DNA from: Patescibacteria group bacterium | GTDB lineage: Bacteria; Patescibacteriota; JABMPQ01; JAQVVF01 | NCBI GenBank assembly: GCA_041662665.1 | Contig: JBAZSC010000004.1 | Span: forward strand, 76,464 to 136,403 | Direction of reading: 5' to 3' | DNA length: 59,940 bases | In this document: piece by piece, positions 2,209-24,757 of the stretch | Position numbering within the stretch: position 1 is the stretch's first letter | How the letters are laid out: each line of letters starts with the position of its first letter | Notes under the pieces: model-generated | Databases searched by the model: none | What the model saw: only the letters and a program-made list of their open reading frames with translations | Told to the model about the DNA's origin: nothing | Position numbers and translations under genes: made by a program

Positions 2209-2255
2209 TTGACAATTATCAATATTTTGCTAGACTAAAATTGTAAAATTATTTT

Positions 2256-2675: not shown

Positions 2676-2679
2676 ATAA

Positions 2680-3243: not shown

Positions 3244-3244
3244 A

Positions 3245-3963: not shown

Positions 3964-3994
3964 TAAATTATTTAACAATTTAACAATAGAACAA

Positions 3995-5149: not shown

Positions 5150-5151
5150 AT

Positions 5152-5175
5152 AAAAAAAAGACATTTTATTGTCTT
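5152..5175. terminator. bidirectional hairpin terminator (thiI / 5180..5572)
   Basis: AAGACA-TTTTAT-TGTCTT flanked by an A-run on the + strand. Confidence 0.6.
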
Positions 5176-5179
5176 AATA

Positions 5180-6321: not shown

Positions 6322-7500
6322 ATGTCTGATAACAAAATCAACGAAATTTTAACTCGCGGAATTGAAGATATTATTGAAAAAGATCATCTTCAAAAAAATT
6401 TAGAATCAAAAAAATTAAGAATTAAATTTGGCATTGATCCAACTGGCCCAAAAATCCATTTAGGTCGAGCCATTCCTCTTTGGAAACTTCGCGACCTTCA
6501 AAATCTAGGTCACACTATTGTTTTAATCATCGGTGATTTTACTGCCCAAATTGGCGATCCTTCTGACAAGTTGTCAAAACGACCTTTTCTTACAGAAGAT
6601 GAAATCAAAAAGAATCTTGAAAATTATAAAGAACAATTAGGCAAAATTTTGAATATTGAAAAAGTTGAATATCGCTATAATTCGGAATGGCTAAAAAATT
6701 TAACTTTCAAAGAAATCAGCCAATTAGCTGAAATTTTTTCCATCCAACAAATGCTAGCCAGAAGAAATTTCAAAGAAAGATTTGAGAACAAAGAAGAAAT
6801 TTCTTTGCGTGAATGCCTCTATCCAATCATGCAAGGCTACGATTCAGTTCAAATAAAATCGGATTTAGAAGTTGGCGGTTTTGATCAATTATTTAATTTA
6901 AAAGCAGGCAGATTAATCCAAAAACATTTTAATCAACCAGAACAAGATATTTTAACTTGTAAAATGTTATTAGGCTTAGATGGGCGAAAAATGTCGACAT
7001 CTTGGGGTAATATTATTACAATCGTAGACGAACCAAATGACATGTTTGGCAAAATCATGTCCATGCATGACGAATTAATTCCAGACTACTTCTTACTTTG
7101 TACCAGATTAAATTTAGAAGAAGTAAATAAAATTAAAACAGAATTAGAACAAGGTACAAATCCAAGAGATTTAAAAATTAAATTAGCTAAGGAAATCGTT
7201 ACTTTGTATCATAGCAAAGAGTTAGCAGATAAAGCCGAGGCAGAATTCAAACAAGTTTTCCAACAAAAAGGCAAACCAACCGACATTCCAGAAATAGAAA
7301 TTAAAGACAAAAAATTAAAATTAATCGACCTAATTTCACAGACAAAAACGATTCCATCAAAATCAGAAATCCGCCGTTTAATCGAACAAAAAGCTGTCAA
7401 AATCAACGATCAAGTTAACAATAATTGGCAAGCCGAAATTGAAATAAAATCTGGCGACATTATTCAAATCGGCAGAAGAAAATTCGTAAAAATAAAATAA
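6322..7500 (+). CDS. tyrS: tyrosine--tRNA ligase
   Basis: HIGH-type motif (KIHLGR), KMSTS, GGFDQLFN, C-terminal S4-like domain. Confidence 0.9.
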   Translation: MSDNKINEILTRGIEDIIEKDHLQKNLESKKLRIKFGIDPTGPKIHLGRAIPLWKLRDLQNLGHTIVLIIGDFTAQIGDPSDKLSKRPFLTEDEIKKNLENYKEQLGKILNIEKVEYRYNSEWLKNLTFKEISQLAEIFSIQQMLARRNFKERFENKEEISLRECLYPIMQGYDSVQIKSDLEVGGFDQLFNLKAGRLIQKHFNQPEQDILTCKMLLGLDGRKMSTSWGNIITIVDEPNDMFGKIMSMHDELIPDYFLLCTRLNLEEVNKIKTELEQGTNPRDLKIKLAKEIVTLYHSKELADKAEAEFKQVFQQKGKPTDIPEIEIKDKKLKLIDLISQTKTIPSKSEIRRLIEQKAVKINDQVNNNWQAEIEIKSGDIIQIGRRKFVKIK

Positions 7501-7566
7501 AAGATTAAAACACAAATCCCAAATCCCAAATTCCAAACAAATTACAAATCACAAAATACAAAAAAA

Positions 7567-7589
7567 CCTGCGAACGAACGCAGGTTTTT
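7567..7589. terminator. hairpin terminator after tyrS
   Basis: CCTGCG-AACGAA-CGCAGG then TTTTT; A-run on the other side. Confidence 0.7.
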
Positions 7590-7611
7590 ACTTTATAAAC
7601 TTTATAACTTT

Positions 7612-7767
7612 TTACTCGTCTTTTTCTTTTGGTCTTTTTCTCACAAAATGTCCTTGATATCGACATTTCTGGCATAACATTTTTTCTTTGGTCTCAATCC
7701 AACCATGCTCGCCTTCATATTCATAATCCTGCCCACAATTTGGGCAATACACTTTTATTTTGTCCAT
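7612..7767 (-). CDS. 51-aa zinc-ribbon protein (below ORF-track cutoff)
   Basis: MDKIKVYCPNCGQDYEYEGEHGWIETKEKMLCQKCRYQGHFVRKRPKEKDE: two CxxC pairs, ATG start, TAA stop. Confidence 0.55.
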   Translation of the reverse strand: MDKIKVYCPNCGQDYEYEGEHGWIETKEKMLCQKCRYQGHFVRKRPKEKDE

Positions 7768-7775
7768 ATATTTAT

Positions 7776-7814
7776 ATTAGCAAATAATTAGCAAAAATTA
7801 GCAAAGGATTAGCG
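7776..7814. repeat. intergenic word repeat ATTAGCAAA x4
   Basis: attagcaaataattagcaaaaattagcaaaggattagcga. Confidence 0.75.
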
Positions 7815-8657
7815 ACTTATTAATAATCCTGCTCCAATCATTCCAGCATCATCGCCTAACATTGCCTTTTCAACTTTAAATTCAACATCTTTATAAAAAA
7901 TATATTTTCCCATTTCTTTTTTTGCCGATTCAATCAAAATGTCAGACCTTGCTAATCCTCCACCAATAATTATAATTTCGGGACACAAAATATTTATTAA
8001 ATCTGCAATTCCAATTCCTAAATATTTACCTGCTGTTTCATAACATTTTTTTGCTATATCATCTCTTTCAATTTTATTTTCAATTTCTACTGCGTCAATA
8101 TTTTGACCGTAGCATTTTTCAATTGCAGATCCAGAAGCTAAATTCTCAAAACTTTTTTCACCTAACATCATATGTCCAGCTTCTGCTCCAAATCCTTGAC
8201 CCTTATATAATTTAGAATCAACAATAATTCCTGATCCAATTCCAGTCCCAATTGTCAATCCTAAAATATTTTTAAATCCTTTGCCTGCTCCAAATTTTGC
8301 TTCAGCTAAAACAAAACAATTCGCATCATTTTCTATAGCAATTTTTGTTACTTTAAATCCATTTAATTTCTTTAACAATAAATCACTAAAATCAATTCCA
8401 TCTAATTTCGGCATATTCGGAGATTTGATAATTTTTCCTTTCTCAGAATCAATTTGTCCAGCAATTCCTATTCCAATTAATAATTCCTCATTATTTTCTG
8501 CTAAGGCTTTAACAATTTCAACAACATTATCCAAAACTTTATCAATACCCAAATTAGCTTCTGTTAATTTTTTAACTTTTTTGACAATTTTAGAACCATC
8601 AAAAATTCCACCAATCATTTTCGTTGCGCCAATATCAATGCCAATTATTTTATTCAT
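7809..8657 (-). CDS. ROK-family sugar kinase (glucokinase-like)
   Basis: IGIDIGATK N-terminus, glycine-rich ROK core GLTIGTGIGSGII. Confidence 0.85.
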   Translation of the reverse strand: MNKIIGIDIGATKMIGGIFDGSKIVKKVKKLTEANLGIDKVLDNVVEIVKALAENNEELLIGIGIAGQIDSEKGKIIKSPNMPKLDGIDFSDLLLKKLNGFKVTKIAIENDANCFVLAEAKFGAGKGFKNILGLTIGTGIGSGIIVDSKLYKGQGFGAEAGHMMLGEKSFENLASGSAIEKCYGQNIDAVEIENKIERDDIAKKCYETAGKYLGIGIADLINILCPEIIIIGGGLARSDILIESAKKEMGKYIFYKDVEFKVEKAMLGDDAGMIGAGLLISR

Positions 8658-8701: not shown

Positions 8702-10573
8702 CTATATTTTATACCGAATGTCAGACATTAATTCATAATATTTCCTAATAATTCTTCTTGCTCCAACAGCAGACCACAATTGAACTTTGCTCATTCTTCC
8801 GCCCACATTAGATTGCTCTGTCCAAAATCTCGCCTTGCCTTGATCATCACAATAATGCAATTCTGGAATCATTTTTAATTTATCAAAAGCTTTGATCATA
8901 TTCTCGCAAGTCACCAATAATGTTTTTTTAATTAATTTTTGCAAATCTTTATCCCATTCTTCAACAATAGATTTTTTTAAATGTTTTGATAATCCCAAAA
9001 CAATATAAGCTGTTTGTTTTGTCCAAATAACCAAGCCATGATAATCCATTGTCGTAAATCCAGCTTTATCACTTTGGCCAACCAATACCGGACCTGCATC
9101 TGTATAAAAATATTTTTTGTCTAATAATCTTTTGCAAAAACTTTCAATCTCATTCTTGCTTCCATCACAATATGTATATAAATAGGATTCATCGATATGA
9201 TTAACTTTATACTGTTTGTATTTTATTTTTTTGCCTTTCTTTTCACCTTCTACGTCATACAATGCCAAAGCATATGCCAATAGGCCATCTTCGTTCTTAA
9301 ATTTATAATAACCTTTTACTTTATTCCATTTTTTTATTAAGTCATCGATATCCGGTATTGTCATTCCAAGTTTTTCTTGATAATCTTTCAGCACTCTTAA
9401 TGCTTCAGGATAAAAAACTACATTTACATCAAATGGCGCGATCTTTGGCGATATTTTTTTGTACGACCATTCTGAATCTCGCCAATCTCCCATTTCGTAA
9501 TATTTTTTATCTTTTGTTTGCAATTCTTTCGGTAATTTTTTAAATAAAATTAAATTATTTTCTCGTGCTTGTTTTAAAATATAGTTAGCAGTTAATTTTA
9601 TTTTTTCTTTATTTTCTTTATTTATCAAAAAATCATTTGACAGCATTTTTAAACCGAAAATATAATGAGGTTCAATATCAATCATTCTTCTATTAAAAAT
9701 ATCTTTTCCAGCTAATTGATGTTCATATTTATATTCTCCGACAACATCTTCATGCCAGCCTTCTCCATCTTTATCAATATTTTTTAAAGAAACTTCATAC
9801 ATATAATCTCGCACTTTTGGCAAAAGATCATGTACTCCTAAATCTGAAGTTTCCATCCAATCTCGTGGAAAAATTGTCCCATAATAATCACCAGATGTTT
9901 TACCCCATGTTATCAAATGCCTTACTTCAACCTCAGTCATTTTCCAAAAATATTCTACTGTTTTTTTGTATTTTCCAAATGTGTCAAAATTGAATTCTAT
10001 TGGTTCAAAAAAACTTTTAATTTTGCTTCTATTGATATCATTGGTTGAAGAAATAATTCGAAAATTGATTTCTCCTTTTTTAGTCATATCAGAAATTTGA
10101 TGCCCTTTGTACGGACTATCAATGCTTTCAATCACAACATCATTTGAAGTAAATTCAAATAATGTTTGATACCAATATTTTTCACCATAAAATCTTTTAT
10201 AAACTAGCAAATCACTAAAACCTACCTTTCGATGTTTCACAACTTGCGGTACTAATTTATCAAAAAAATTTTGCCTAATTTCCAAAAAACTGACAAACGG
10301 TTTTGCTGCATATTCTTTAGTAATCAAACTTCGCATTGTTCTAATATCATCCATTGCTGGATAATACAAATTAACTCTTTCTGACAAAAAAGTTCCATCA
10401 ATTTTTACTTTTCCATTAGTTGATTCAACTTTATTAATTTTTATTTTATGTCTCGGAATATCTATTAGCCCAAGATAAAGATGATTGTTCGGTCCGATTA
10501 TTCTAAATTGGCCAAGTTCATCAAAATCAATATAATATCCTCCCTCTATCCACAAATCTTTGTCTAGTTTCAT
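8702..10573 (-). CDS. putative (alpha/alpha)6-barrel glycoside hydrolase-like protein
   Basis: FPRDW and QLWSAVGA motifs resemble amylo-alpha-1,6-glucosidase / GH15-GH63-type barrels; assignment weak. Confidence 0.45.
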   Translation of the reverse strand: MKLDKDLWIEGGYYIDFDELGQFRIIGPNNHLYLGLIDIPRHKIKINKVESTNGKVKIDGTFLSERVNLYYPAMDDIRTMRSLITKEYAAKPFVSFLEIRQNFFDKLVPQVVKHRKVGFSDLLVYKRFYGEKYWYQTLFEFTSNDVVIESIDSPYKGHQISDMTKKGEINFRIISSTNDINRSKIKSFFEPIEFNFDTFGKYKKTVEYFWKMTEVEVRHLITWGKTSGDYYGTIFPRDWMETSDLGVHDLLPKVRDYMYEVSLKNIDKDGEGWHEDVVGEYKYEHQLAGKDIFNRRMIDIEPHYIFGLKMLSNDFLINKENKEKIKLTANYILKQARENNLILFKKLPKELQTKDKKYYEMGDWRDSEWSYKKISPKIAPFDVNVVFYPEALRVLKDYQEKLGMTIPDIDDLIKKWNKVKGYYKFKNEDGLLAYALALYDVEGEKKGKKIKYKQYKVNHIDESYLYTYCDGSKNEIESFCKRLLDKKYFYTDAGPVLVGQSDKAGFTTMDYHGLVIWTKQTAYIVLGLSKHLKKSIVEEWDKDLQKLIKKTLLVTCENMIKAFDKLKMIPELHYCDDQGKARFWTEQSNVGGRMSKVQLWSAVGARRIIRKYYELMSDIRYKI

Positions 10574-10589
10574 ATTAAAAAATAATAAA

Positions 10590-11642
10590 TTAGATAAATT
10601 TAAACCATTTTTTCCAATTTTGTTTATCTATTAACTTTTGATAAACTTCTTCATAACCATCAACCATTTTTTCAATCGTAAAATGTTGCATAACTCTTTT
10701 CCTACAATTCTCACGATCAATTGATTTGATTTTTTTGATCGCTGCTGCCGCTTCTCTAATATTTTTTACTAAATAACCAGTTTTGCCATCTTCAATTATT
10801 TCTTTTGTTGCACCATTGTCATAGGCAATTACTGGCGTGCCACAAGACATTGCCTCAATCATTACTAAACCAAATGGTTCTCTCCATTGCACTGGAAAAA
10901 TCAAAGCTTCAGCACCTTGTAATAATTTGATTTTTTCTTTTTGTTGAACAGGACCAACATATTTTATTTGTTTATTATCAATAAAAGGTTTAATTTCTTT
11001 TTGATAATAAAGATCTTTTTTACTATCCAATTTTGCCGCAATAATTAATTTTTTACCTGCTAATTTTGCAATTTTGATCGCTTCAGCAGTACCCTTTTCT
11101 TTGCAGATTCTGCCCAAAAATAAAATATAATCTTTTGGCTTAAAATTAAAACTATATTTTTCAGTATCTAAACCATGATAAACAGTCGATACATAATTTA
11201 ATTCTGGCAAAGGCTTTCTTTGACTATTTGAAATTGAAGTAAAAAAACATTTTTTATAATCTCGATAAAATTTCTTTGCCATTACATCTTCCAAATTTAT
11301 ATGGAAAGTTGTTACAATCGGAGTTTTTACTAAATTCACCAAAGGCAAAATATGCCAAGATAAGTGGCTATGAATTACATCATACTTTTTTGCATCTTCT
11401 AATAATTTGCTTGTCAACCATTGTACATACATCAAATAAACTTCTTTATCAATATTCTTCAGAGGTTTATAACAAACTGATTCAATATTAGCTAATGTTT
11501 TTGAATCTCCAGAAGCATACAATGTTACTTTATGTTTTCTTCTAACTAATTCCTCGCAAATTAAACCGACTACCATTTCAATTCCTCCATAATCAATCGG
11601 CGGCACTCTTTCCACAATTGGTGAAATTAATGCTATTCTCAT
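10590..11642 (-). CDS. GT4-family glycosyltransferase
   Basis: N-terminal PPIDYGGIEMVV...; EX7E region EPFGLVMIEAMSCGTPVIA. Confidence 0.85.
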   Translation of the reverse strand: MRIALISPIVERVPPIDYGGIEMVVGLICEELVRRKHKVTLYASGDSKTLANIESVCYKPLKNIDKEVYLMYVQWLTSKLLEDAKKYDVIHSHLSWHILPLVNLVKTPIVTTFHINLEDVMAKKFYRDYKKCFFTSISNSQRKPLPELNYVSTVYHGLDTEKYSFNFKPKDYILFLGRICKEKGTAEAIKIAKLAGKKLIIAAKLDSKKDLYYQKEIKPFIDNKQIKYVGPVQQKEKIKLLQGAEALIFPVQWREPFGLVMIEAMSCGTPVIAYDNGATKEIIEDGKTGYLVKNIREAAAAIKKIKSIDRENCRKRVMQHFTIEKMVDGYEEVYQKLIDKQNWKKWFKFI

Positions 11643-11652
11643 ATTTAAATTT

Positions 11653-12681
11653 TTATTTTTTACTAACTAATTGTTCGTAAATTTTTAAATAATTATCTGC
11701 CATTTTCTCAACAGTAAATTTTTCTTGAACAATTTTTCGACAATCAGATCTTCTAATTTTATCAATCATTTTTACTGATTTTTCCATTTCCGTAATATCA
11801 TTAACTATAAAACCAGTTTTACCATTTTCAACAATTTCTGGGATTGCTCCTTTATTAAATGTAATGACTGGCGTTCCGCATGCCATTGCTTCAATTAAAA
11901 CCAAGCCAAAAGCTTCGTTCCAACTTATTGGAAAAATAAAAGCTTTAGCTTTTTTCATAATCTTGTTTCGCATCTGTGGTGTAATCTCGCCTAAAAATTT
12001 TATTTGGTCATCATCAATAAAAGGTTCTATTTTTTCTTTATAAAAATTTTCAAATTCTGGTCTTCTATCACCAGCAATTAACAACTTTTCGCCTGTTTTT
12101 TTTGCAACCTCTATTGCTTTGTCAGCACCTTTTTCTGGAGAAATCGTTCCCACAAAAAACAAATATTCGCCGGAATTCTCACTAAATTCAAATTTGCTCA
12201 AATCAATACCATGATAAACAGTATCCAAATAATTTAATTCTGGCCATAAATTTCTTTGAGCATCACTAATTGAAACAAAATTTTCTTTGCTATAAGTTTC
12301 CGCTAATTTTTCTAATTCTCTTTTACTGCTATGCAAAGTTGTCAGAGTCGGAGTTTTTACTAATCTCGCAAATGGCAACATTGTAAAACCAACATGATTA
12401 TGAATTACATCAAATTGATTAGCCATTTCATAACATTTTCCACCATTAATCAAATCCATATAAAAATAATTCCAATCAAATTTTCCAAGCATCTCATACA
12501 ATGATTTATCAATTATCGAAAATAATTTTGCTTTTGTTTTTGACGTCCCACAAGCAAATAATGTTACTTCATGGCCTCTTTTTACCAATTCTTCAGTCAA
12601 TAGACTAACTACAACTTCTGTTCCTCCATATTTTATTGGAGGTACTCTTTTCCACAATGGCGCTAAAATTGCTATTTTCAT
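11653..12681 (-). CDS. GT4-family glycosyltransferase (paralog of 10590..11642)
   Basis: PPIKYGGTEVVV; EAFGLVLIEAMACGTPVIT. Confidence 0.85.
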   Translation of the reverse strand: MKIAILAPLWKRVPPIKYGGTEVVVSLLTEELVKRGHEVTLFACGTSKTKAKLFSIIDKSLYEMLGKFDWNYFYMDLINGGKCYEMANQFDVIHNHVGFTMLPFARLVKTPTLTTLHSSKRELEKLAETYSKENFVSISDAQRNLWPELNYLDTVYHGIDLSKFEFSENSGEYLFFVGTISPEKGADKAIEVAKKTGEKLLIAGDRRPEFENFYKEKIEPFIDDDQIKFLGEITPQMRNKIMKKAKAFIFPISWNEAFGLVLIEAMACGTPVITFNKGAIPEIVENGKTGFIVNDITEMEKSVKMIDKIRRSDCRKIVQEKFTVEKMADNYLKIYEQLVSKK

Positions 12682-14474
12682 AATTTATGTTCCTTGCCTT
12701 GTTCTAAAACATTTAAAACAAAATTGTATGATGTTGTTGAAAAAATTAACGCATAAATAATTAATAAAACAGCAATTAACCATGATTCGAAGCCTCCAAT
12801 CACAACGACAATACTAATCGCGAAAAATAGACAGATTAAAGTGATTGCTAACTCTTTGAAGGCATATTTCCAATTATCTCTTATTTTTGGCCGATGCGTA
12901 AATTTTGATGTACGTTTAAAAACAAATTGCTTAGTAATAAAACCATCCAGCGTCGCATACGCCATTGCTAATGTCAAAGAATAAAATGACACTAAAGCCC
13001 AAAACATTGTTGAAAATTTTTGTTTTATTAAATTTTTCAATATATATAAAAACCCAAAAGTTCTTCTAAAAATATATGATCCTATTGTAAACATTATAAC
13101 AAACAAAATTGGCCAAGAAAATGCCATTCCAAAATTATAAAGTATTACTAAAATCAGCAAAATTATTGTTACTGGCAACAAAAGATTCATCCAAATACTA
13201 ATCGCTGCAAAATAATTTACTTTCTGCCAAAAATTTAAACCAGATTTTACACCAGGTAAAAATTTTTTCCAATGTTGCTTTAAGACTTGAACATTGCCGA
13301 ACGTCCATCTCTCTCTTTGTTTTTTATAACTTTTGAATTCATCAGGTATAAATCCTTTTCCAAAAGCTTTATCAATATAAACAGTTTTATATCCTTTTGA
13401 ATGAACTCGAAAACCAACTTCTATATCTTCAGTTATAGTTTTCTCACTCCATTCTCCAATAGTTTCCAAAATATTTTTTCTAAACAATCCCATTGTCCCC
13501 ATAAAAGATGCTGCATTATCCATATTATTAGAAATCATATTTACCGCAAAAAAATATCGGTATACCCAAAAACAAGAGACAAAATACTTGCTCCATTCCC
13601 AACCGCGAAAACTTTGCGGAGTCTGGACAATTGCAATTTTTTCATCTTCAAAATAACCAACAGTTTCTTTCAAAAATTCAGGAACAACTAAATAATCCGC
13701 ATCTATTACACAAATAATTTCAGAATCAGATGCAGTATGTTTCAAAGCTAAATTCAAAGCTCCGGCTTTAAAACCAGATAATTCACCAACATGAAAAAAC
13801 TTAAATTTTTCTGACTTTTCCTTACAATATTTTTCTACTGGTCGCCATAATGCCTCTTCTTCTGTCCCATTATCAACAACAATCACTTCAAAATTCGGAT
13901 AATTTAATCTCTCAAGTCCTGCTAAAGTTTCAATTACCATTTCAGGTGGTTCTTTTTTTGTTGGAATATGTATCGAAACTTTTGGATATCTTTTTAACGG
14001 CTTATCCCATGGCTTGCTGATTCTAATATTTCTGATTCTGAACAATGAATTCATCTGCGTAAAAACTTCCGCCAAACATAATAATGCTTCAGCAACAAAT
14101 AATATTAATAAGATTATTAATATTATTCCTTCAACTAAAGAAAAACTTGTGATTAAAAAAATAACAGCGTACAGAAATAATGAAACAAATGAATAAATCA
14201 ATGAGCTATACAACAAATTAGCCAACGAACTCCAAACTGAAAAAATTTTTGCCACCAACAAATTCACAACTAAAAATGCCAATCCAAAAATAATCAAAGT
14301 CACAAAATCATCCACATAAAAATTAGTTAAAAACATTGCAACCAAACTGACAAAAAAAGACAAAAATATCGAGCAAAAAAGTGATCCAAATTTATACCTT
14401 TTTCCAAAAATAATTACACAAAAAAGCGACAACAAAAACAGCATAAACGAAAAAAACAGATTTAAAATTATCAT
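12678..14474 (-). CDS. processive GT2 polysaccharide synthase (cellulose/chitin/PNAG-synthase-like), polytopic
   Basis: VIDADY, QTPQSF, TEDIE and QRERW (QxxRW) motifs; N- and C-terminal TM bundles. Confidence 0.8.
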   Translation of the reverse strand: MIILNLFFSFMLFLLSLFCVIIFGKRYKFGSLFCSIFLSFFVSLVAMFLTNFYVDDFVTLIIFGLAFLVVNLLVAKIFSVWSSLANLLYSSLIYSFVSLFLYAVIFLITSFSLVEGIILIILLILFVAEALLCLAEVFTQMNSLFRIRNIRISKPWDKPLKRYPKVSIHIPTKKEPPEMVIETLAGLERLNYPNFEVIVVDNGTEEEALWRPVEKYCKEKSEKFKFFHVGELSGFKAGALNLALKHTASDSEIICVIDADYLVVPEFLKETVGYFEDEKIAIVQTPQSFRGWEWSKYFVSCFWVYRYFFAVNMISNNMDNAASFMGTMGLFRKNILETIGEWSEKTITEDIEVGFRVHSKGYKTVYIDKAFGKGFIPDEFKSYKKQRERWTFGNVQVLKQHWKKFLPGVKSGLNFWQKVNYFAAISIWMNLLLPVTIILLILVILYNFGMAFSWPILFVIMFTIGSYIFRRTFGFLYILKNLIKQKFSTMFWALVSFYSLTLAMAYATLDGFITKQFVFKRTSKFTHRPKIRDNWKYAFKELAITLICLFFAISIVVVIGGFESWLIAVLLIIYALIFSTTSYNFVLNVLEQGKEHKL

Positions 14475-14483
14475 AAATAATAC

Positions 14484-15479
14484 TTATATAAATTTTTTCT
14501 CTGCCATATCTAAATCAAACTTGTGCGCTCTTAATGCTTCTTTTGTCGTCACATAAGATTTTATCGGTTCAAACCAATCATTATATTTCCAAATTATTAT
14601 TTCTCTAACTGACAATTGAATTAAAATTAAAGCAAACATTTTTTCAAATCTCTCTTTATCCTCAATATTTTGTACAAATTCATTATACATTTTGTTGCGC
14701 CATTCTGGATATTTCCAAGCCTGTACCCATAAAAAAGCCAAGTCAGATGCATTGTTGTCAAGATGTACGTCTTCCCAATCAGCTGTATGTATTAATTCAG
14801 ATTTTTTTTCAACAATTTGATTTGAAAGCGAAAAATCTCCATGCGCCAAAACTTTGCATTCTTCATCAAAAAAATTTTTTTTATCTTTAACAATTTTTAA
14901 AAGCTTTTTATACCTATTTTCTCCGATCATTTCAAAAGCTTTTTTTTCATAACTTAAAAATTCTTTTTCATACCAATTTCCATCCCTTTTTTCAAGAATC
15001 GGCAAATTATTACTTTTTAACATTACCTCTGTATTTTTTTGAATACCTGATAAATTGCCAAGAATTCCTTTTATAAACTCGTCTCTTCGTTCCGAATAAT
15101 CTTTATCAAAATCAAAAATTGAACCAATCGGCTTTCCATCAACAAAATAAAATAATGCCCATCTTATTTTTCCATCGATTCCCTCTTTTCTGTAAAGTTG
15201 GACATTCAAATTATTTTTATTTTTTAATTCAACCACTGTCTTGTTCAACCAAATTTCTCTAGCAAAAGCTTCATTTGTCTCTTGTTCATCAACAATGTTT
15301 GCTTTAAAAAAATATTTCTTATTATCTTTGTCTAAACAAATCGCATAATAATATCGTTTTAAATCTTTTATTCTTTTTTCCATCGTATGCTTCACTGATT
15401 CAACTGGCTGCAAATTCAAATCCTGCAAAATTTTCCTTAATTTATTCTCTGCTTCTGGAATAAAATTTCGAGTTTGCAT
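14484..15479 (-). CDS. APH/choline-kinase-family phosphotransferase
   Basis: HGDFSLSNQIV catalytic loop and DWEDV motif. Confidence 0.7.
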   Translation of the reverse strand: MQTRNFIPEAENKLRKILQDLNLQPVESVKHTMEKRIKDLKRYYYAICLDKDNKKYFFKANIVDEQETNEAFAREIWLNKTVVELKNKNNLNVQLYRKEGIDGKIRWALFYFVDGKPIGSIFDFDKDYSERRDEFIKGILGNLSGIQKNTEVMLKSNNLPILEKRDGNWYEKEFLSYEKKAFEMIGENRYKKLLKIVKDKKNFFDEECKVLAHGDFSLSNQIVEKKSELIHTADWEDVHLDNNASDLAFLWVQAWKYPEWRNKMYNEFVQNIEDKERFEKMFALILIQLSVREIIIWKYNDWFEPIKSYVTTKEALRAHKFDLDMAEKKFI

Positions 15480-15488
15480 AAATATTTT

Positions 15489-16394
15489 TTATAAATTCTC
15501 TAAAATTAATTCCACTATCAAATCAGAAACATTTTTGTGAGCTTCTTTAAAAGCTTCCGGATAAAATCCAGGAAAATTATTTTCATCAACTATTTTATAA
15601 CCATCAGCTGTCTTAATAAAATCAAAACCAACAATTGATTTGTCTAAAATTTCTGCTGCCTTTTCGGCATAATCTTTAACAGGCGACGGATCAACATAAT
15701 ACGCTCCTCCACCTGCTCCTTTAACATCATACACTTTCCAATCAGCAAATTTTTCTTCTTTTTTCCTATATCCATAGACAATTTTTCCGTTGATTAATGT
15801 TGTACTTATCCAAGCTTTTTTGTCATTTTCATAAAACTTTTCTACAAAAATTTTATTCTGACCATAAGATTTTAACATGCCAGCTATATCTCTTAAAGTT
15901 TCAAAATCTTTAACTTTTATAATTCCTCTGCCAAAACTTCCAAATCTCGGTTTAACTAAAATCTCTTTCCAGTCATTCAGAATCTTTTTCATAGTTTCAA
16001 GATCATCATAAGGAATCAAAGCAAAATCAGCAATTGGCAAACCTTTTTCTTTCAAAGTCACATGCGTCTTAAATTTATCATTAATCAATTCTAATGATTC
16101 AGGATTTTTAATAACCTTTATTACTTTTGATAAAGCTTTGTATTCATTTATATTTCTGCCAGGCGCATACCAAAAGAATAAATCACATTTGCTCAAATTA
16201 ACATTATCGCACCAAAAATCAGTGTTCAGTACTTTTAAATTATTAAAATTAACATTACCTAAAAATTCAATTTCAGAATTCTGTTTCAATTTTTCTTCAA
16301 TTTTCAGAACCTCTTCTTTGCTCAAGAAACCAGTTTGTTTTTTAGTTGAATTATCAATACTTAACAAAAAAATCGCCACTTTTTTCTTACTCAT
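15489..16394 (-). CDS. RimK-like ATP-grasp ligase
   Basis: LVKPRFGSFGRGI, VEKFYE, DENNFPGF segments typical of the ATP-grasp fold. Confidence 0.65.
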   Translation of the reverse strand: MSKKKVAIFLLSIDNSTKKQTGFLSKEEVLKIEEKLKQNSEIEFLGNVNFNNLKVLNTDFWCDNVNLSKCDLFFWYAPGRNINEYKALSKVIKVIKNPESLELINDKFKTHVTLKEKGLPIADFALIPYDDLETMKKILNDWKEILVKPRFGSFGRGIIKVKDFETLRDIAGMLKSYGQNKIFVEKFYENDKKAWISTTLINGKIVYGYRKKEEKFADWKVYDVKGAGGGAYYVDPSPVKDYAEKAAEILDKSIVGFDFIKTADGYKIVDENNFPGFYPEAFKEAHKNVSDLIVELILENL

Positions 16395-16453
16395 AAATAT
16401 ATTTAAAAATATTTTTACTAAACAGCTAATCCTGTGCCCTAAAAACCTAAGCC

Positions 16454-17899
16454 CTAAGCACTAACAAGTCCCAATTCTTCATAAACAGCTTTTACGACGT
16501 TCTTCATCCAGCCATTTAATTCCTTGCCATCATGTTCAGAAATTTCTTCGTTTGCAATAATTTTTAAAATTTTTCCATTTTTTGCATACACTAAATTTTT
16601 TGTTGGCACGCCATCAGTTAAAATAAATTCACCTGCATTTTTGATATCAATCAACTCAACGCCTAATCTTAAAAATTCTATTTTTTCATTATTCAATTTA
16701 TAAACTCCGCCTTTTAATTCTTTTCCACATTTGACATCTTTTCCTAATGGATTAAAAATTAGTAGATGCCCGCCATTTCTTTTTTTATCTTTTTTAAAAA
16801 CTTGCTCATTCTTAATTTTGTATGGAATATTTAAAAATTCTAAAATATGAAATGAAACAATAGGCACTTCTCCTTTATCAAGTTGTACAAAAACAGAAGC
16901 TGGAAAAGTTCCTAATAATCTGACATTAATTTCTAATGGCAAAAGTTGGTTATTTTTTTTATCCCAAATCAAATCTAAGCCAAAAATTCCTTTTAATCCT
17001 GCTTCTTTTAATTTCTCGCCGATTTTTGTAACGAGTTCAACACCTTGTTTATTTATTTCATCAGGAATATTTACTGATTGCGACCAATCATGTCCGCAAA
17101 AAACACCTACTGCATTTGTCTTATTTTTCGTCGCTTCTTTGATATCAATTAATTGATATTGGCAATATGATGTCAAAATTCCATTATCTTTTGTAATACA
17201 GCCAGTAATGCTCAAAACTGGTCCTTCCACAAATCTGCTTGCCACAATTTTCATTGCATTATTTCTTTTTTTATTAATCAGATCAAATCTGGCAAAAATT
17301 TTATCCATCACTTCGGCTCGCTCATTTTTATTAAAAAAGAAGGTTCCTCTTCCTCCTCCTTCATCAACAAATTGGATTACAATTTTTTCCCATTCATCAA
17401 ATAAATTGTCCAAATTCTTTTCTAAATCAGCTAGATCAAAAATTTTAATGTCTCGATTTATTTTTAATTCTTCTAAAATTTTATAAAACTCTAATTTACT
17501 GCTAAATCTTTCAAACAATTCAGGACTGTTAGAAAGCATCGTCCAATTATTTTTTTGACAAATTTCTTTTGATTTTTTGGATGGCTTATAAAAATATAAG
17601 GCTGTCTTTCTATTTTTTGCCGAACTATTAATGTGTTCAATAACTTTTTTATCGCTCAAAACTACATCTGGTCTTTTCTCTGGAATTTTATTTGATGATT
17701 CAAAATCAGCCACAAAAACTTTTGTCCTTATTTTCACAGAATCTATTTCTCCAGATAAGTTACCGCATATCACTTCAAAATCTGAAACTAAAGGCCAAAT
17801 TTCCGACCTAGTTGATGGATACCCGCCAACACCAAAAATAGCGACATTATTTTCTGTCAAAATATTTTTAATATCTTCTTTTGAACTAACTATCTTCAT
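16454..17899 (-). CDS. ATP-grasp-fold ligase (divergent)
   Basis: VDEGGGRGTFFF, RFVEGPVLSITG, GLDLIWDKKNNQLLPLEINVR segments. Confidence 0.5.
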   Translation of the reverse strand: MKIVSSKEDIKNILTENNVAIFGVGGYPSTRSEIWPLVSDFEVICGNLSGEIDSVKIRTKVFVADFESSNKIPEKRPDVVLSDKKVIEHINSSAKNRKTALYFYKPSKKSKEICQKNNWTMLSNSPELFERFSSKLEFYKILEELKINRDIKIFDLADLEKNLDNLFDEWEKIVIQFVDEGGGRGTFFFNKNERAEVMDKIFARFDLINKKRNNAMKIVASRFVEGPVLSITGCITKDNGILTSYCQYQLIDIKEATKNKTNAVGVFCGHDWSQSVNIPDEINKQGVELVTKIGEKLKEAGLKGIFGLDLIWDKKNNQLLPLEINVRLLGTFPASVFVQLDKGEVPIVSFHILEFLNIPYKIKNEQVFKKDKKRNGGHLLIFNPLGKDVKCGKELKGGVYKLNNEKIEFLRLGVELIDIKNAGEFILTDGVPTKNLVYAKNGKILKIIANEEISEHDGKELNGWMKNVVKAVYEELGLVSA

Positions 17900-17919
17900 A
17901 ACAAAAAAGTTTTAAAAAT

Positions 17920-19194
17920 CTATTTTTCTGCTTTCAAAGCATTTACAATTTTTATTAAATTCATTCCATGTGATGCTTTAACTAAAATCACATCTTTTTC
18001 TTCTACCATATCCTTAATTCTACCAATCGATTGATCAACATCATTAAAATGCAATGTTTTATTAATATCGAAACCATTGTTAACTGCTTCTTCAGCAATC
18101 TTTGTTGCATCATCACCAATCGTAATTAAAAAATCTACAGTATCGCTACTTATTGTTTTGCCAATTTCGCGATGGCATTGATCTGAAAATTTATGCAACT
18201 CTAATATATTTCCTAAGATAGCAATCTTTCGCCTCTCTTTTGGAAAGACTGCCAATGATTTTAATGCTGCGGTCATTGAACGAACATTGGCATTAAACGT
18301 ATTATTTATAATTATCGAATTTTTTATGCCTGTCACAATATTTCCTCTACCTTCTACTGGCTCAATCTTACTAACAGCATCAATTATTTCATCACGATTC
18401 ATATTATAGATTCTGCCAACTAAAATTGCTGGCAAAATTGCATAGACATGAGCTCTATCAAAAATTTTCGGAACTTTAAAATTTATTGGCTCGTTGTCTT
18501 CTTCTTTAAACACAAAACTTAATCCGTTCTCATTAATTATGACATCAGAAACTCTTGCATTTGCAGATTTATCAAATCCATAAAAAATTATTTTAGCAAC
18601 TGTACATTTTGCCATGTCTTTTACATACGGATCATCAACATTTAACAATGCATTGTGAGAATTTAAACAACCACATTCAACTAAGGCTCTTTTTTTAGAT
18701 GCAATTTCAGAGAGACCACCAAGATTTTCTGCATGCACAATTTCAACAGCAGTTACAACCCGAATATCAGGTTGTAATTTTTCTGTAATAAAACGCAAAT
18801 TATTTCCAGCATAATTGCACCTTAATTCCAAAACTAAATGGGACCAAAATCGCACCCGCTTATTTAACAAAATCCAAAACGCTTTAAAAAAAACATAAAA
18901 TAACCCTAAAAATTGTTTGCGCAATTCACGCACTGGGCTATAACCAAAAATCGACAAAAAAGTAGGAACTCCAGTTGTCAAATCTTTACTAATATATACA
19001 TTCGGATATTTTGTTTTTAAAACCGAATAAATAAAATTAGTTGTTGTTGTTTTTCCAAGACTGCCTGTTACGCCAACAATCTTTGTTTTTCTTTTATCAA
19101 CTACTAATCTAGTTAAAAAAGCCAACGGCTCAAAAACAAAAGTTTGGCGAATTCTATACTTTAAACCTCTAAAAAATTTTATTATTTTTTCCAT
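17920..19194 (-). CDS. Mur-ligase-family protein (MurF/CapB-like)
   Basis: P-loop VGVTGSLGKTTTTN; Mur middle and C-terminal domain-like layout. Confidence 0.75.
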   Translation of the reverse strand: MEKIIKFFRGLKYRIRQTFVFEPLAFLTRLVVDKRKTKIVGVTGSLGKTTTTNFIYSVLKTKYPNVYISKDLTTGVPTFLSIFGYSPVRELRKQFLGLFYVFFKAFWILLNKRVRFWSHLVLELRCNYAGNNLRFITEKLQPDIRVVTAVEIVHAENLGGLSEIASKKRALVECGCLNSHNALLNVDDPYVKDMAKCTVAKIIFYGFDKSANARVSDVIINENGLSFVFKEEDNEPINFKVPKIFDRAHVYAILPAILVGRIYNMNRDEIIDAVSKIEPVEGRGNIVTGIKNSIIINNTFNANVRSMTAALKSLAVFPKERRKIAILGNILELHKFSDQCHREIGKTISSDTVDFLITIGDDATKIAEEAVNNGFDINKTLHFNDVDQSIGRIKDMVEEKDVILVKASHGMNLIKIVNALKAEK

Positions 19195-19195
19195 C

Positions 19196-20236
19196 TTATT
19201 TCTTTTTTAAAGCCAGTATTCTTTGATAAACTTTTATATACTCATCAGCCATATGAGAGCTGCTAAAATATTTTTCAGCATAATTACGACATTCTTGGCG
19301 ATCAAATATCTCATCAACTTCTTTTACTGCCTTAACTAAATCATCCATCTCATTTGATAGATAAGCAACCTTTGGACTTCCACCCAAAAGCTCTGGCATT
19401 TGTCCTATTTTTGTCCCAATAATTGGCGTTCCGCATATCAAAGCTTCCGAAAGCACTAACCCAAAAGGTTCAGGCTCTTGAATCGTAAAAAGAAGTGCTT
19501 TTGCTTTTCTGTAATAATCATATATTTTTTTATGCGAAACTTCTTTTTTATAAATAATATTTTTACCATCAATAAATGGCTTTATTTCTTTTTCAAAATA
19601 ATCCTTATAAGCATGATTTATTCTACCAAAAATCAGCAGCTTAATTTTCGCTTTTAAAGCAATTTTGATCGCCTTATCTACTCCTTTTTGCGGAGTCAAT
19701 CTTGCAACTGTCATAAAATACTCTCCCTTCTTAACAGAATATTCAACTTTTTTAACTGGCACTCCATTCCCAATTATTGCATAAGAATCAAGTTTTTTAT
19801 CATGAAAATCAGTCAAAGAAACAGTAAAAATTTTTGCTTCATTAATTAATTCAAATTCATCTTTATCTATTCCGCTATGCAATGTTAAAACACATGGTAT
19901 TTTTGAAATTTTACCAACTGGATAGGCATGTCTCTGTGAATTCAAATGAATAATATCAAATTTATCCTGATAATTTAAAACCTTCATTTGACTATAAGTA
20001 ATATAATTTTGCCTGATTATCCTTTTCTGTTTTTTAAAATCTTTCATATTCCAAAGACTCTGCTTCAATGTCGCAATCCTTTTTACTCCAATTTTCCAAT
20101 CTTCAGGACAAAAAAGAGTGACGTCAACATCGTCTTTTTTAGCTAACTCAGAAACCAAATTTTGAACAACAACTTCTGGTCCGCCCCAATCACCAAATGC
20201 CGGCGACACAACAGCTACTTTAATTTTTCTTTTCAT
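19196..20236 (-). CDS. GT4-family glycosyltransferase
   Basis: EPFGLVLSEALICGTPIIG EX7E region. Confidence 0.8.
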   Translation of the reverse strand: MKRKIKVAVVSPAFGDWGGPEVVVQNLVSELAKKDDVDVTLFCPEDWKIGVKRIATLKQSLWNMKDFKKQKRIIRQNYITYSQMKVLNYQDKFDIIHLNSQRHAYPVGKISKIPCVLTLHSGIDKDEFELINEAKIFTVSLTDFHDKKLDSYAIIGNGVPVKKVEYSVKKGEYFMTVARLTPQKGVDKAIKIALKAKIKLLIFGRINHAYKDYFEKEIKPFIDGKNIIYKKEVSHKKIYDYYRKAKALLFTIQEPEPFGLVLSEALICGTPIIGTKIGQMPELLGGSPKVAYLSNEMDDLVKAVKEVDEIFDRQECRNYAEKYFSSSHMADEYIKVYQRILALKKK

Positions 20237-20284
20237 AAATTTAAGACTTAACCTATCTTCACTATAATTAATTTTGACGCATCA

Positions 20285-20347
20285 GCATTCGTATCCGCGT
20301 TAGCATCCATATCGTATCCGCGTCGTTTCCGCAACGTTCCGCGATAA
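20285..20347. repeat. intergenic word repeat, (T)ATCCGCGT family
   Basis: cgtatccgcgttagcatccatatcgtatccgcgtcgtttccgcaacgttccgcg; family recurs at ~21400, ~24668, ~33548. Confidence 0.75.
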
Positions 20348-20392
20348 TATTTATTTATTTCAATAGAATTGCAATCTTATCAAATCGTTTTT

Positions 20393-21361
20393 CTACATCA
20401 ACCAAGAATCCATTGCTTCAAGAACATCAGTAAAATATTTTTCTCTTGTGTCAAAATTATTTTCGTTAAAATAATCAACTCCTGGCTTCGTATTCATTTC
20501 AATTAATTTTGGCCCATTTTTTTTATCATATAAAAAATCCAAAGAATAAATCCTTTCACTAAAAAAACTAATTCTTTTATTAACTTTTTTTACAATGTTC
20601 CAAATCTCTTCTGGAATCTTTTTCTCATCAATAATATTCAAAACTGCTCCTTGGTGAAAATTGGTAAATAAAGAACCTTCTGGCGCCACTCTTGTTGCTG
20701 CATAACTAAGCTCTTCACCAACAAAAACCATTCTCAAATCAGCCACACGATCCTTAAAACCCCAAAAAGAAGCGTCAGCTTCCAAAAATTCTTGCCCTAA
20801 AACAGGAAAAGAAACTTTTTTTAGATCAATATTCTTTATCTTTTCAATTATAATTCCAAATCCTCCAGATTGATCAATCGGTTTCAAAACAATTTTCTTC
20901 TCTTGATCCATAGACTTCAAAATTCTTTCTAAATTCTGAAAATTACCAGCAAAAAAACTTTCTGGCATAAATTCAGAGAATAATAAACATTGATTTATTT
21001 TGTTATCAAAAAGAGAAGAAAAAATTGGATCATTTATAATCGGAATACTTTTTTGCATTGCTTTCATATTCTCTAGATCTTCCATTTTTTCTCTTATTTT
21101 TATCTTATTCAAAACAACATCTGGCAAAAAAGATTTTTCGTTTTTTTCCCATTTTCCATTTTTAAATTGCCAATATTTTTTAAAGCTGCCATTTTTCTTG
21201 TCAAACCATTCAATCGATGCACGAACCATTTCTACTTCCATTTTTCCAGCTTGCTCTGCCCAAGCTTCATAACCTTTTCGATTTGCTTCTTTATCAAACG
21301 GTATTTCTTTATCCCAGTCATCACCTTGATAAATTACTAATATCTTTTGTAAGTTTTTCAT
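20393..21361 (-). CDS. RimK-like ATP-grasp ligase
   Basis: LKPIDQSGGFGII, GQEFLE, LIEMNTKPG segments. Confidence 0.6.
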   Translation of the reverse strand: MKNLQKILVIYQGDDWDKEIPFDKEANRKGYEAWAEQAGKMEVEMVRASIEWFDKKNGSFKKYWQFKNGKWEKNEKSFLPDVVLNKIKIREKMEDLENMKAMQKSIPIINDPIFSSLFDNKINQCLLFSEFMPESFFAGNFQNLERILKSMDQEKKIVLKPIDQSGGFGIIIEKIKNIDLKKVSFPVLGQEFLEADASFWGFKDRVADLRMVFVGEELSYAATRVAPEGSLFTNFHQGAVLNIIDEKKIPEEIWNIVKKVNKRISFFSERIYSLDFLYDKKNGPKLIEMNTKPGVDYFNENNFDTREKYFTDVLEAMDSWLM

Positions 21362-21489
21362 TTTTTATTCTATATTATTACAACTAAATTTTTAGAGAGT
21401 ATCCGCGTTATATCCGTATTTTCCGCGTAAATTTATTATGAGTATTAAATTATTTTTCAAATATTATAAAAAATCAACGAAATTATTTA

Positions 21490-22914: not shown

Positions 22915-22924
22915 AGATTATACT

Positions 22925-23022
22925 CTAAATCCTAGGTCCTAAACAAATCCAAAACTTAAATGGTCAATAATTTGATTTTGAACATTTACATTTTGATATT
23001 TAAATTTGTTTAGGACTAAGAA
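22925..23022. repeat. long imperfect palindrome built from CCTAAA/CAAAT words
   Basis: GTCCTAAACAAAT (22937-22949) pairs perfectly with ATTTGTTTAGGAC (23004-23016). Confidence 0.75.
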
Positions 23023-23023
23023 T

Positions 23024-24547: not shown

Positions 24548-24757
24548 AACTTTTTTTAATTTTTCATTTTCTCCAAAAATCAACATACCCGCCACTATCT
24601 TGTCAAGTTTTATAATAGAATTATAACAAAATAAATCAAAAAAACAAAGTAAATGTCAAGGTTTTTTAATTATCCGTTTGCCATCCGTTGAATCCGCGTA
24701 AAAGACGATAAAAACAAAAAACTTTTAAAGTTTTAAATAATTAGTTTGTACCGTTAA

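Follow-up and report, generated by a model that had tools for sequence, protein, structure and literature searches.

Among the described systems that come closest to the gene array considered here is the rlo operon of Pseudomonas aeruginosa, which genetic evidence links to the tolerance of hypo-osmotic conditions, to cell shape, to the formation of biofilms and to antibiotic resistance, an effect on the envelope (PMC12239564). One of its products, RloB, is reported to be 96% proteobacterial (PMC12239564). The array itself lies on the minus strand of a 59,940-nucleotide (nt) stretch of DNA from a Patescibacteria group bacterium (contig JBAZSC010000004.1), called "the window" at its full length. 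It contains 13 co-oriented genes, read from position 24595 to position 7809: g12 to g1, numbered against the direction of transcription, and then a gene for a sugar kinase of the ROK family. Three of its domains correspond to the RloABC proteins, and to the related RimK-RimB pair. The g12 protein carries the PF14402 seven-transmembrane (7TM), "inactive-transglutaminase-type" domain and matches RloB, the ATP-grasp part of g11, of the ATPgrasp_ST/TIGR02291 type, matches RloC, and the retropepsin part of g11, a PF05618 domain with a DTG motif, matches RloA/RimB. However, in the window the peptidase forms one protein with the ATP-grasp and lacks a signal peptide, whereas RloA is separate and secreted, and g12 has a PKD domain and an unassigned domain instead of the transglutaminase-like domain. 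Furthermore, the module of this type, which is present in Patescibacteria, has gained a MurF paralogue, as many as three additional ATP-grasps and, in one comparison locus (L174), a ligase resembling the M domain of cyanophycin synthetase (CphA).

A second point of comparison is the MurF/Ddl step of peptidoglycan (PG) synthesis. The Mur ligase of the array, g8, has the central and C-terminal fold of MurF together with its catalytic residues, and it always stands beside an ATP-grasp gene, echoing the addition by MurF of a dipeptide made by Ddl. Unlike the MurF of the dcw (division and cell wall) cluster, which falls in a separate clade, g8 lies outside dcw, scores below the family cutoff, has changes in the TKE, DDTYNASP and GDMLELG motifs and is partnered by a RimK-family ligase. 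The same pairing of an ATP-grasp with a Mur-type ligase is used for an amino-acid chain by CphA1, in which the two are the G and M domains of one protein, and the Mur domain of CphA has been reported to be close to MurE and MurF (PMC11915815). The window, in contrast, contains neither a fused CphA nor an M-domain-like gene. Cyanophycin loci are not known to include membrane or glycosyltransferase (GT) partners.

The remaining genes recall the synthase-dependent polysaccharide systems, such as BcsA-BcsZ, PgaC and the NdvB-type fusions of a family 2 glycosyltransferase (GT2) with a family 17 glycoside hydrolase (GH17). The shared features are the D,D,D/TED/QxxRW motifs of the GT2 g4, a six-hairpin partner (g1) and the GH17-fused distant homologues of g4. 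In contrast to those systems, the window has no PilZ domain or BcsB/PgaD-type partner, g4 is far below the CelA and PgaC cutoffs, g1 is cytoplasmic and GH63/GH94-like rather than GH8, and the genes beside the GT2 include GT4s and two kinases. Sugar salvage by anomeric kinases of the aminoglycoside phosphotransferase (APH) fold together with nucleotidyltransferases is known from NahK and GalT of the LNB-GNB (lacto-N-biose/galacto-N-biose) pathway, from AmgK and MurU, and from maltokinase (Mak). In three comparison loci (L090, L172 and L173) an APH-fold kinase with intact motifs likewise occurs together with GalT-like genes, another sugar kinase and GTs; unlike these pathways, the array of the window has no GalT-like gene, and the similarity of its kinase g5 to characterized members is marginal. 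Lastly, ligase-made acidic polymers that are associated with or linked to envelope glycans include the teichuronopeptide of Bacillus halodurans, which involves the ATP-grasp TupA, and poly-gamma-glutamate, which involves the Mur-family ligase PgsB. The gene sets of these systems are otherwise unrelated to that of the window; no significant match to a TupA-type ATP-grasp (PF14305, 20.7 bits against a 25-bit cutoff) and no match of the PgsB/CapB type was found. A literature search on PF14397/PF14402, and on an association of ATP-grasp and Mur ligases in Patescibacteria, returned nothing relevant. Taken together, the comparison suggests that the array is an Rlo-type amidoligase system with a recruited MurF paralogue, joined to a glycan module.

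Two modules in one array

By comparison with other loci, the array is a composite of two modules, each of which is found alone in other Patescibacteria. The amide-ligase module, g12 to g6, comprises the 7TM/PKD protein, the RloC-like/retropepsin fusion, three further ATP-grasps and the MurF paralogue. The glycan module, g5 to ROK together with g9, comprises the GT2, the GT4s, the APH-fold kinase, the GH63/GH94-like protein g1 and the ROK kinase. The explanation that we favor, tentatively and with somewhat less than even confidence, is that this one array joins a peptide-ligase set and a glycan set making a glycan-plus-peptide envelope product, which would be assembled before export.

The first-pass annotation of the window had set its limits at g1 to g9 (8702-20236), with ROK immediately downstream, and had taken them as a nine-gene operon coupling a processive glycan synthase to ATP-grasp and Mur-type ligases. 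On recomputation the nine minus-strand open reading frames (ORFs) and their coordinates are reproduced exactly, as are the gaps of no more than 59 nt and the single 4-nt overlap; from g1 to g9 the intergenic distances are 16, 10, -4, 9, 9, 59, 20 and 1 nt. Pfam and NCBIfam bear out the assignment of three GT4s, a GT2, a RimK-like ATP-grasp, a Mur ligase and a ROK kinase, and the union of a processive-type GT2 and GT4s with ATP-grasp and Mur-type ligases in one array stands, as does the remark that the combination matches no named pathway. The nine genes are co-oriented and tightly spaced, but they are not a self-contained operon: they belong to two modules, three more genes of the ligase system (g10-g12, 20393-24595, same strand) lie upstream of g9, and ROK and a terminator lie downstream.

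When the ligase module occurs alone, it is arranged as ruvC, a gene for a 7TM_transglut protein, an ATPgrasp_ST/RimB fusion, a MurF-like gene and a RimK-type ATP-grasp, followed by a convergent tyrS and PBP1a, with dnaN-dnaA farther along. This order is present in loci L003/L004 and L005/L006/L017/L109, with 4-nt overlaps at several junctions, and a shorter contig (L094) that runs from 7TM_transglut through tyrS also has the ligase module only. The glycan module alone is present in four loci. In L090 the order is yebC, ruvC, three GT4s, the APH kinase, a GT4, g1, a GalT-like gene, ROK and PBP1a; in L091 it is a GT4, a fusion of GT5/GT1 with APH, a GT4, GH57, g1, ROK, tyrS and PBP1a; in L172, GT2, three GT4s, an APH-like gene, g1, a GalT-like gene and PGI; and in L173, GT2, two GT4s, APH, g1, a BadF-type kinase and a GalT-like gene. 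Compared with the window proteins, the GT4s of these loci are 35-47% identical, the kinase 23-33%, g1 49-58% and the GT2 41%. The GT2 thus belongs to the glycan set, and in other organisms this set works in the absence of amide ligases. The two modules are joined only in the window and in its 86%-identical relative, L001.

A part of the glycan set is nevertheless found against the ligases more widely. In L174/L093, a RloB-like 7TM gene, RloC/RimB, a RimK-family ligase, a CphA-M-like Mur ligase and a MurF-like gene of the same clade as g8 (clade B, described below) are followed by five GT4s and tyrS, with spacing of 0-20 nt or overlaps; all but one of these GT4s share 40-47% identity with g2/g3. 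In L092 a cupin gene and then a more distant GT4 (25% identical to g2) follow the clade-B ligase, and in L002 GalT-like, GT4 and GT2 genes follow it after a gap. In the window and in L001 the GT4 g9 is located within the ligase module itself, and in the window it is separated from g8 by 1 nt. GT4s thus lie directly against the ligase set in three or four independent lineages, with differing gene orders, and three lineages carry ligases without GTs in the available flanks. Because GT4s of the same type follow tightly behind the clade-B ligase in three or four lineages, a functional link between the ligases and the GT4s is plausible.

L174 also contains, at 2144-5490, a split cyanophycin-synthetase-like pair, which is present likewise in L092 and L093: a RimK-family ATP-grasp gene overlapping one for a 407-amino-acid (aa) stand-alone ligase whose only match is to the CphA M domain (310.7 bits). 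This ligase lies between the RimK-family ligase and the clade-B gene, giving two tandem Mur-type ligases outside any dcw context. The ORF upstream of the clade-B gene in L092/L093 was considered as a full cyanophycin synthetase; this was rejected, as L174 shows a stand-alone M-domain-like ligase after a separate RimK-family gene.

The existence of ligase-only and glycan-only loci raises the strongest of the competing explanations, which is that two unrelated systems sit next to each other in a conserved slot for envelope genes, have separate products and are co-oriented without biochemical meaning. The lone modules are always beside ruvC, tyrS, PBP1a or dnaN-dnaA, like the window, as would be expected from such a slot. 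However, the GT4s are 0-24 nt from the clade-B ligase set in L174/L093 and L092, a GT4 is interleaved among the ligase genes in the window and in L001, and gene order varies by lineage, contrary to the inheritance of one accidental junction. We regard a purely positional association as unlikely, though it carries appreciable weight.

A diverged MurF-type ligase

The gene g8 (17920-19194, minus strand) encodes a Mur ligase with the Mur_ligase_M and Mur_ligase_C domains. MurF is its best hidden Markov model (HMM), although its score on the MurF model TIGR01143, 214.9 bits, is below the cutoff of 288.6; on the CphA models it reaches only 20-27 bits. An AlphaFold 2 (AF2) model of g8 (predicted local distance difference test score [pLDDT] 92.8) has MurFs as its best structural matches, with template-modeling scores (TM-scores) of 0.62-0.74. 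The P-loop, GSLGKTT, is at residue 44, and the Mg-binding residues E123 and H154 and the lysine K168 are conserved. Domain 1 is missing, and a single long helix (residues 2-35) takes its place. In characterized MurFs, domain 1 binds the UDP-MurNAc-peptide. The argument that g8 has no N-terminal domain and so is not a MurF was rejected, given that about 100 of the best 120 matches also have the P-loop at residues 20-57, including copies that follow mraZ-rsmH-ftsI. The dcw MurFs of Patescibacteria lack the whole of domain 1: their P-loop is located ~28-33 residues after the first Met (49 in L022), and the gene is right after ftsI. Loci with such short dcw MurFs are L007, L008, L010-L013, L016, L018, L019, L022, L026 and L038, and also L096-L110.

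Three motifs and the gene neighborhood set g8 apart. In place of TKE, DDTYNA(S/N)P and GDMxELG, it has TTN, NNTFNANV and GNILELH. The consensus of its clade is TTx, NNTFNANP and GDMLELe, whereas dcw-type and canonical MurFs, including that of E. coli, keep all three motifs. In a neighbor-joining tree the copies in an Rlo-type context form clade B, apart from the dcw clade. TIGR01143 scores of clade B are 210-222 bits (window, L002, L003 and L005) and 261 bits in L093, and two Patescibacteria copies in a confirmed dcw context score 270 and 314 bits, one just below and one above the cutoff. A Saccharibacteria-labeled clade-B copy scores 148 bits against a Saccharibacteria dcw copy, whereas dcw copies of different classes score 218-610 bits among themselves. 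In at least 12 genome loci (including a Saccharibacteria metagenome-assembled genome [MAG]) and in further metagenome loci, the dcw slot after mraZ-rsmH-ftsI is held by the other clade. No clade-B copy occurs in a dcw context, and the genes that constantly accompany clade B encode RloC/RimB, the 7TM protein and ligases of the RimK family instead of Ddl. In keeping with this, g8 is located between a GT4 and an ATP-grasp gene, and is not beside murE or ddl. A scan of genomes with the clade-B alignment recovered 79 ordinary MurF loci without the cluster partners and a single genuine clade-B locus, L017. No second Mur ligase is present in the 60-kb window, and no second MurF copy was present among the matches on clade-B contigs of 98 and 129 kb, which is a weak check.

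These comparisons indicate that the housekeeping MurF of Patescibacteria is the dcw copy after ftsI, itself short at the N terminus, and that g8 is a candidate neofunctionalized paralogue, not of the housekeeping type. The first-pass annotation had named ordinary PG enzymes (Ddl, MurC-F) beside a capsule locus as the finding that would undo its proposal. Scores, motifs, context and the lack of a Ddl match largely answer against that case, but the MurF-like g8 is not fully cleared.

ATP-grasp and Rlo-like genes

Besides g8, the ligase module contains four candidate ATP-dependent amide ligases, g6, g7, g10 and g11, and none of the five has a transmembrane (TM) segment. By analogy with pathways of the PG and pseudomurein type, these five may act in series. 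The ATP-grasp families in question were reportedly defined by Iyer and colleagues in 2009.

The gene nearest the glycan module, g6 (15489-16394, minus strand), encodes a RimK-like ATP-grasp amino-acid ligase (PF08443, 38.4 bits, cutoff 21). It scores 71.5 bits on MptN, 68.5 on the RimK family TIGR00768 (below the 143.4 cutoff) and 57 on LysX, compared with 15.8-25.3 bits on the Ddl models, whose cutoffs are 243-310. Its positional counterparts pass TIGR00768 in L094 (155.4 bits) and in L174 (152.9 bits) and reach ~24-30 bits on the Ddl models; g6 is 29% identical to the RimK of L094. It is a divergent counterpart of the RimK-family ligase that adjoins the clade-B Mur ligase elsewhere.

The first-pass description of g7 (16454-17899, minus strand; 481 aa) as a divergent ATP-grasp is upheld by its sole NCBIfam match, NF005096 (PRK06524), which scores 94 bits over the full length, and by relatives of g7 that match ATP-grasp_3. 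No Ddl match above noise was obtained for g7 or for g10, and a genome scan with g7 as the query returned nothing. The g7 family has 1022 cluster representatives at E<=1e-3. Its members include fusions to ATPgrasp_ST (RloC-like) plus retropepsin, to retropepsin alone, and to RimK-like, MATCAP carboxypeptidase and GNAT domains (P0259, P0266, P0277, P0305, P0333 and P0255). These fusions place g7 in a network of ligases and peptidases and thus with the ligase module, and they suggest that the PRK06524-like family is part of a widespread system for adding and trimming peptide tails.

The three upstream genes, all on the minus strand, complete the module. The product of g10 (20393-21361) is an ATP-grasp ligase of the glutathione-synthetase/RimK-like type, with matches to PF14397, PF14398, PF08443 and PF02955; L001 has an orthologue (83%), and L002 has a relative (28%). 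The g11 product (21490-22914) is the RloC-like ATPgrasp_ST ligase (PF14397, 247.4 bits) fused to a RimB/RloA-like retropepsin (PF05618, 34.7 bits). On TIGR02291 its score of 286.1 bits falls slightly short of the cutoff of 314.2. The retropepsin ("Zn_protease") domain is C-terminal, with its DTGA motif intact within AKVDTGAASS, and no TM or signal segment is present in the protein. Orthologues of g11 with 41-52% identity are found in the clade-B loci for which upstream sequence is available (L002, L003, L005, L017, L094 and L174), and L001 has a partial copy (95%). The g12 product (23024-24595) is a membrane protein with an N-terminal TM or signal segment, a PKD domain (66.7 bits), a ~170-aa unassigned domain and the RloB-type 7TM domain (PF14402, 126.7 bits). 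The RloB model scores 94 bits on g12 and aligns only with residues 296-507, the 7TM part; no transglutaminase-type Pfam match was found in g12, the PKD domain and the ~170 residues being in that place. The true start of g12 is probably an internal ATG at ~24547.

With its structural likeness to MurF, g8 could also be seen as part of PG-precursor tailoring, in which the MurF paralogue and the ATP-grasps add cross-bridge or stem residues to UDP-MurNAc-peptide or lipid II while the GTs make a separate wall polysaccharide. There is precedent for the addition of bridge residues to PG precursors by ATP-grasps, as in the D-aspartate ligase Asl(fm), and PBP1a is a conserved neighbor. Moreover, Pseudomonas rlo mutants show shape, beta-lactam and osmotic phenotypes (PMC12239564). 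However, there is no other PG gene inside the array, the partner ligases, of the RimK-family and CphA-M-like types, usually have poly-acid chains as their substrates, and the substrate-side motifs of MurF are altered in g8. PG tailoring is therefore considered improbable.

The glycan module

The GT2 gene g4 (12678-14474, minus strand) encodes a polytopic, processive-type enzyme similar to cellulose, poly-N-acetylglucosamine (PNAG) and beta-glucan synthases (PF13632/PF13641/PF00535). The motifs attributed to it from the letters of the window are all present, as DAD258, TED348 and QRERW386, and its TM blocks (1-141, 421-469 and 537-587) lie on either side of the catalytic domain. It scores 146.7 bits on the CelA model TIGR03030 (cutoff 699.1) and 99.8 bits on PgaC (cutoff 422.3). 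No PilZ match and no BcsB or PgaD partner gene was found in the array. Distant homologues of g4 are often fused to GH17, and a GT2 of this type heads the ligase-free glycan modules of L172 and L173.

Downstream of g4, which overlaps it by 4 nt, is the GT4 gene g3 (11653-12681, minus strand), a paralogue of g2 (10590-11642, minus strand). The latter encodes a retaining GT4 (PF00534, 97 bits; PF13439, 50 bits) whose orthologues, with 37-47% identity, are present in both ligase-linked loci (L093 and L174) and ligase-free loci (L090, L091 and L173). The third GT4, g9 (19196-20236, minus strand; PF00534, 78 bits), is a distinct paralogue, 27-35% identical to the g2/g3-type GT4s of other loci and conserved in L001.

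The 623-aa, cytoplasmic product of g1 (8702-10573, minus strand) has no Pfam, NCBIfam or PDB sequence match and no TM segment. Its description from sequence as an (alpha/alpha)6 protein resembling glycoside hydrolases (GHs) is supported by an AF2 model (pLDDT 92.1), in which a beta-sandwich is joined to an (alpha/alpha)6 barrel in a GH63/GH94/GH65-like fold. The top Foldseek matches are YgjK, glucosidase I and the GH94/GH65 phosphorylases, among them cellobiose phosphorylase, with a probability of 1.0 and TM-scores of ~0.45-0.5. The matches also include GH63 glucosyl-/mannosylglycerate hydrolases, and identity in the structural alignments is 9-11%. Many acidic residues are invariant across the g1 family. 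The family has 227 database homologues, the best 120 of which are 45-67% identical over ~600 aa; it is a strongly conserved, unnamed, GH63/GH94-like family without a Pfam model. Its listed relatives (P0121-P0240) are spread across Patescibacteria, with a few from archaeal MAGs labeled Thermoplasmata (P0165 and P0177).

The two kinases flank this part of the array. The ROK-family kinase (7809-8657, minus strand; PF00480, 170.6 bits) resembles glucokinase and N-acetylglucosamine kinase, and it is part of the glycan/salvage module: in L001, L090, L091 and L173 the gene after the g1 orthologue encodes a kinase of the ROK or BadF type. The 331-aa g5 protein (14484-15479, minus strand) has the APH/choline-kinase fold. 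Its first assignment to the APH type is backed by the catalytic loop HGDFSLSN213 and the Mg-binding DWE234, both of which are kept, and by relatives with 23-33% identity in L090, L091, L172 and L173, of which the L090 and L173 copies match PF01636; g5 itself, however, is below threshold on that model (17.2 bits against a cutoff of 23.2). PDB sequence searches with g1, g5 and g7 gave nothing usable. By analogy with the APH-fold anomeric kinases NahK, AmgK and Mak, g5 is probably a sugar kinase. It had been proposed to phosphorylate the polymer, but the conserved partners in L090, L091 and L173 make this less likely: a second sugar kinase, GalT-like genes and one GT fusion fit a salvage kinase for precursor sugars, possibly anomeric, better.

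The fusion in question, in L091 (3997-6462), is an 821-aa protein in which a glycogen-synthase-like GT5/GT1 is joined to a g5-related APH-fold kinase, and its gene lies beside GH57 and a g1 orthologue. This context hints at an alpha-glucan-type metabolism for the glycan module. It also enters into a third competing explanation, in which the array would serve a cytoplasmic reserve or osmolyte, a cyanophycin- or poly-Glu-like polyamide and an alpha-glucan-type carbohydrate being made and recycled within the cell. The best NCBIfam match of the window GT4s, a Corynebacterium-type glycogen synthase family, fits such a role, as do the CphA-M-like ligase with RimK in L174, the resemblance of g1 to glucosyl-/mannosylglycerate hydrolases and the cytoplasmic nature of g1, the kinases and all of the ligases. 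Opposed to it are two dedicated polytopic membrane proteins, the QRERW-bearing GT2 and the 7TM/PKD protein, one domain of which is extracytoplasmic, and a reserve function is accordingly thought to be quite improbable.

Boundaries and surroundings of the array

The array is bounded by ruvC upstream and by a terminator after ROK. Upstream of g12 are ruvC, yebC, dnaN and dnaA; the gaps between g9 and g10, g10 and g11, and g11 and g12 are 156, 128 and 109 nt, and the gap between ROK and g1 is 44 nt. The hairpin at 7562-7589 (minus strand), an 11-bp stem followed by a T run just 3' of ROK, is similar to an intrinsic terminator and is the probable 3' end of the array. It is the only strong terminator candidate on the minus strand, and no comparable hairpin is present in any intergenic gap from g12 through ROK. 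Lying between tyrS and ROK, which converge in the interval 7500-7809, the hairpin could serve both genes as a terminator. A promoter scan was at chance level in this DNA of 30% GC, giving 84 sites compared with 93.6 expected, and it did not place the 5' end. The 30 nt 5' of most of the array genes (8702-24595) are extremely AT-rich and have no obvious Shine-Dalgarno-like GGAGG, so that translation initiation signals may be atypical.

A bacterial 16S rRNA gene is present in the window, whose proteins have relatives labeled Patescibacteria. The rRNA region (37553-41545, minus strand) is unusual. The 16S gene (39926-41545) is ~90 nt longer than the model; tRNA-Ile follows ~1.2 kb after it and tRNA-Ala another ~1 kb on, with spacer ORFs that have no domain matches. 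No 23S gene comes after this stretch; DUF4446, bactofilin and two short ORFs with T2SSE fragments are found instead.

A proposed route to a glycan-peptide product

The weakest of the alternatives, that g8 is simply the housekeeping MurF of the lineage and g6 a substitute for Ddl, both relocated beside a polysaccharide locus, can draw on MurF being the best match of g8 by HMM and by structure, on a missing domain 1 that does not discriminate, and on the lone Mur ligase of the window in an organism that makes PG (PBP1a), but it is highly improbable in view of the sub-cutoff score of g8, the changed motifs, the non-dcw context and partners of clade B, the ~25 bits of g6 on the Ddl models and the second, CphA-type Mur ligase beside the clade-B gene of L174.

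Under the favored explanation, a glycan-plus-peptide envelope product assembled before export, the pathway might proceed as follows. The two kinases would feed salvaged hexose into the nucleotide-sugar pools, and the GT4s would use these to build a glycoside or oligosaccharide. The GT2 g4 would polymerize and extrude a chain of the beta-glucan type, which g1 would trim or recycle. In the cytoplasm, the ATP-using ligases would build and edit a short, probably Glu-rich peptide on an acceptor that bears a carboxylate; by analogy with MurF and Ddl, g8 would append a unit prepared by one of the ATP-grasps. Trimming of the peptide would fall to the retropepsin domain, and anchoring or export of the product to the 7TM protein. 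Given the recurrent tight coupling of GT4s and ligases in several lineages, the acceptor would most likely be a sugar precursor made by the GT4s. In the first-pass annotation a membrane-extruded polysaccharide was predicted to be further glycosylated, phosphorylated and decorated with amino acids or short peptides. Taken literally, decoration after extrusion is mechanistically unlikely: the ATP-dependent ligases and the kinases are cytoplasmic, and addition of amino acids or phosphate must therefore take place on a cytoplasmic precursor.

Several points weigh against this explanation. Each module exists without the other, and both are found in the same chromosomal slot (ruvC ... tyrS/PBP1a), so their adjacency could be positional. 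The case for an operon consists only of gene spacing and the absence of internal terminators, and the three gaps upstream of g9 are 109-156 nt long. The tree of the Mur ligases is a neighbor-joining tree without support values. None of the 13 proteins of the locus is a MraY/WecA-type phosphoglycosyl transferase, a flippase or an ABC exporter, so that the locus itself offers no defined route for a peptide-bearing precursor, and a channel of the BcsA type is not expected to pass bulky branches. The acceptor, the amino-acid specificity and the product of the array are put forward here as proposals.

A broader and more speculative proposal, which we consider rather unlikely, is that some Patescibacteria make a second, murein-independent envelope polymer of glycan and peptide. 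It would consist of a GT4-made sugar precursor to which a non-ribosomal peptide is added by the MurF paralogue together with ligases of the RimK, RloC, PRK06524 and CphA-M types, with export or anchoring by the RloB-like 7TM protein, and in the lineage of the window it would be combined with a GT2-made glucan. If true, this would give the Rlo system a role, that of a membrane-associated synthase of peptide polymers.

Implications

The Patescibacteria are ultra-small and mostly uncultured, and the envelope through which they attach to their hosts is chemically almost unknown. The recurrent association of a MurF paralogue with RimK, RloC and GT4s is unexpected in this group, and it makes the function of Rlo-type systems more testable. 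A diverged copy of MurF that is always accompanied by ligases of the RimK/RloC type, and often by GTs, would mark a new route of envelope biosynthesis in organisms that are otherwise poor in biosynthesis. In addition, the array draws attention to two sizeable unnamed families with clear contexts, the ~600-aa g1 family and the PRK06524-like family of g7. Finally, systems of the RloBC kind are predicted to build an amino-acid chain, since Mur-type and cyanophycin-synthetase-like ligases recur beside them.

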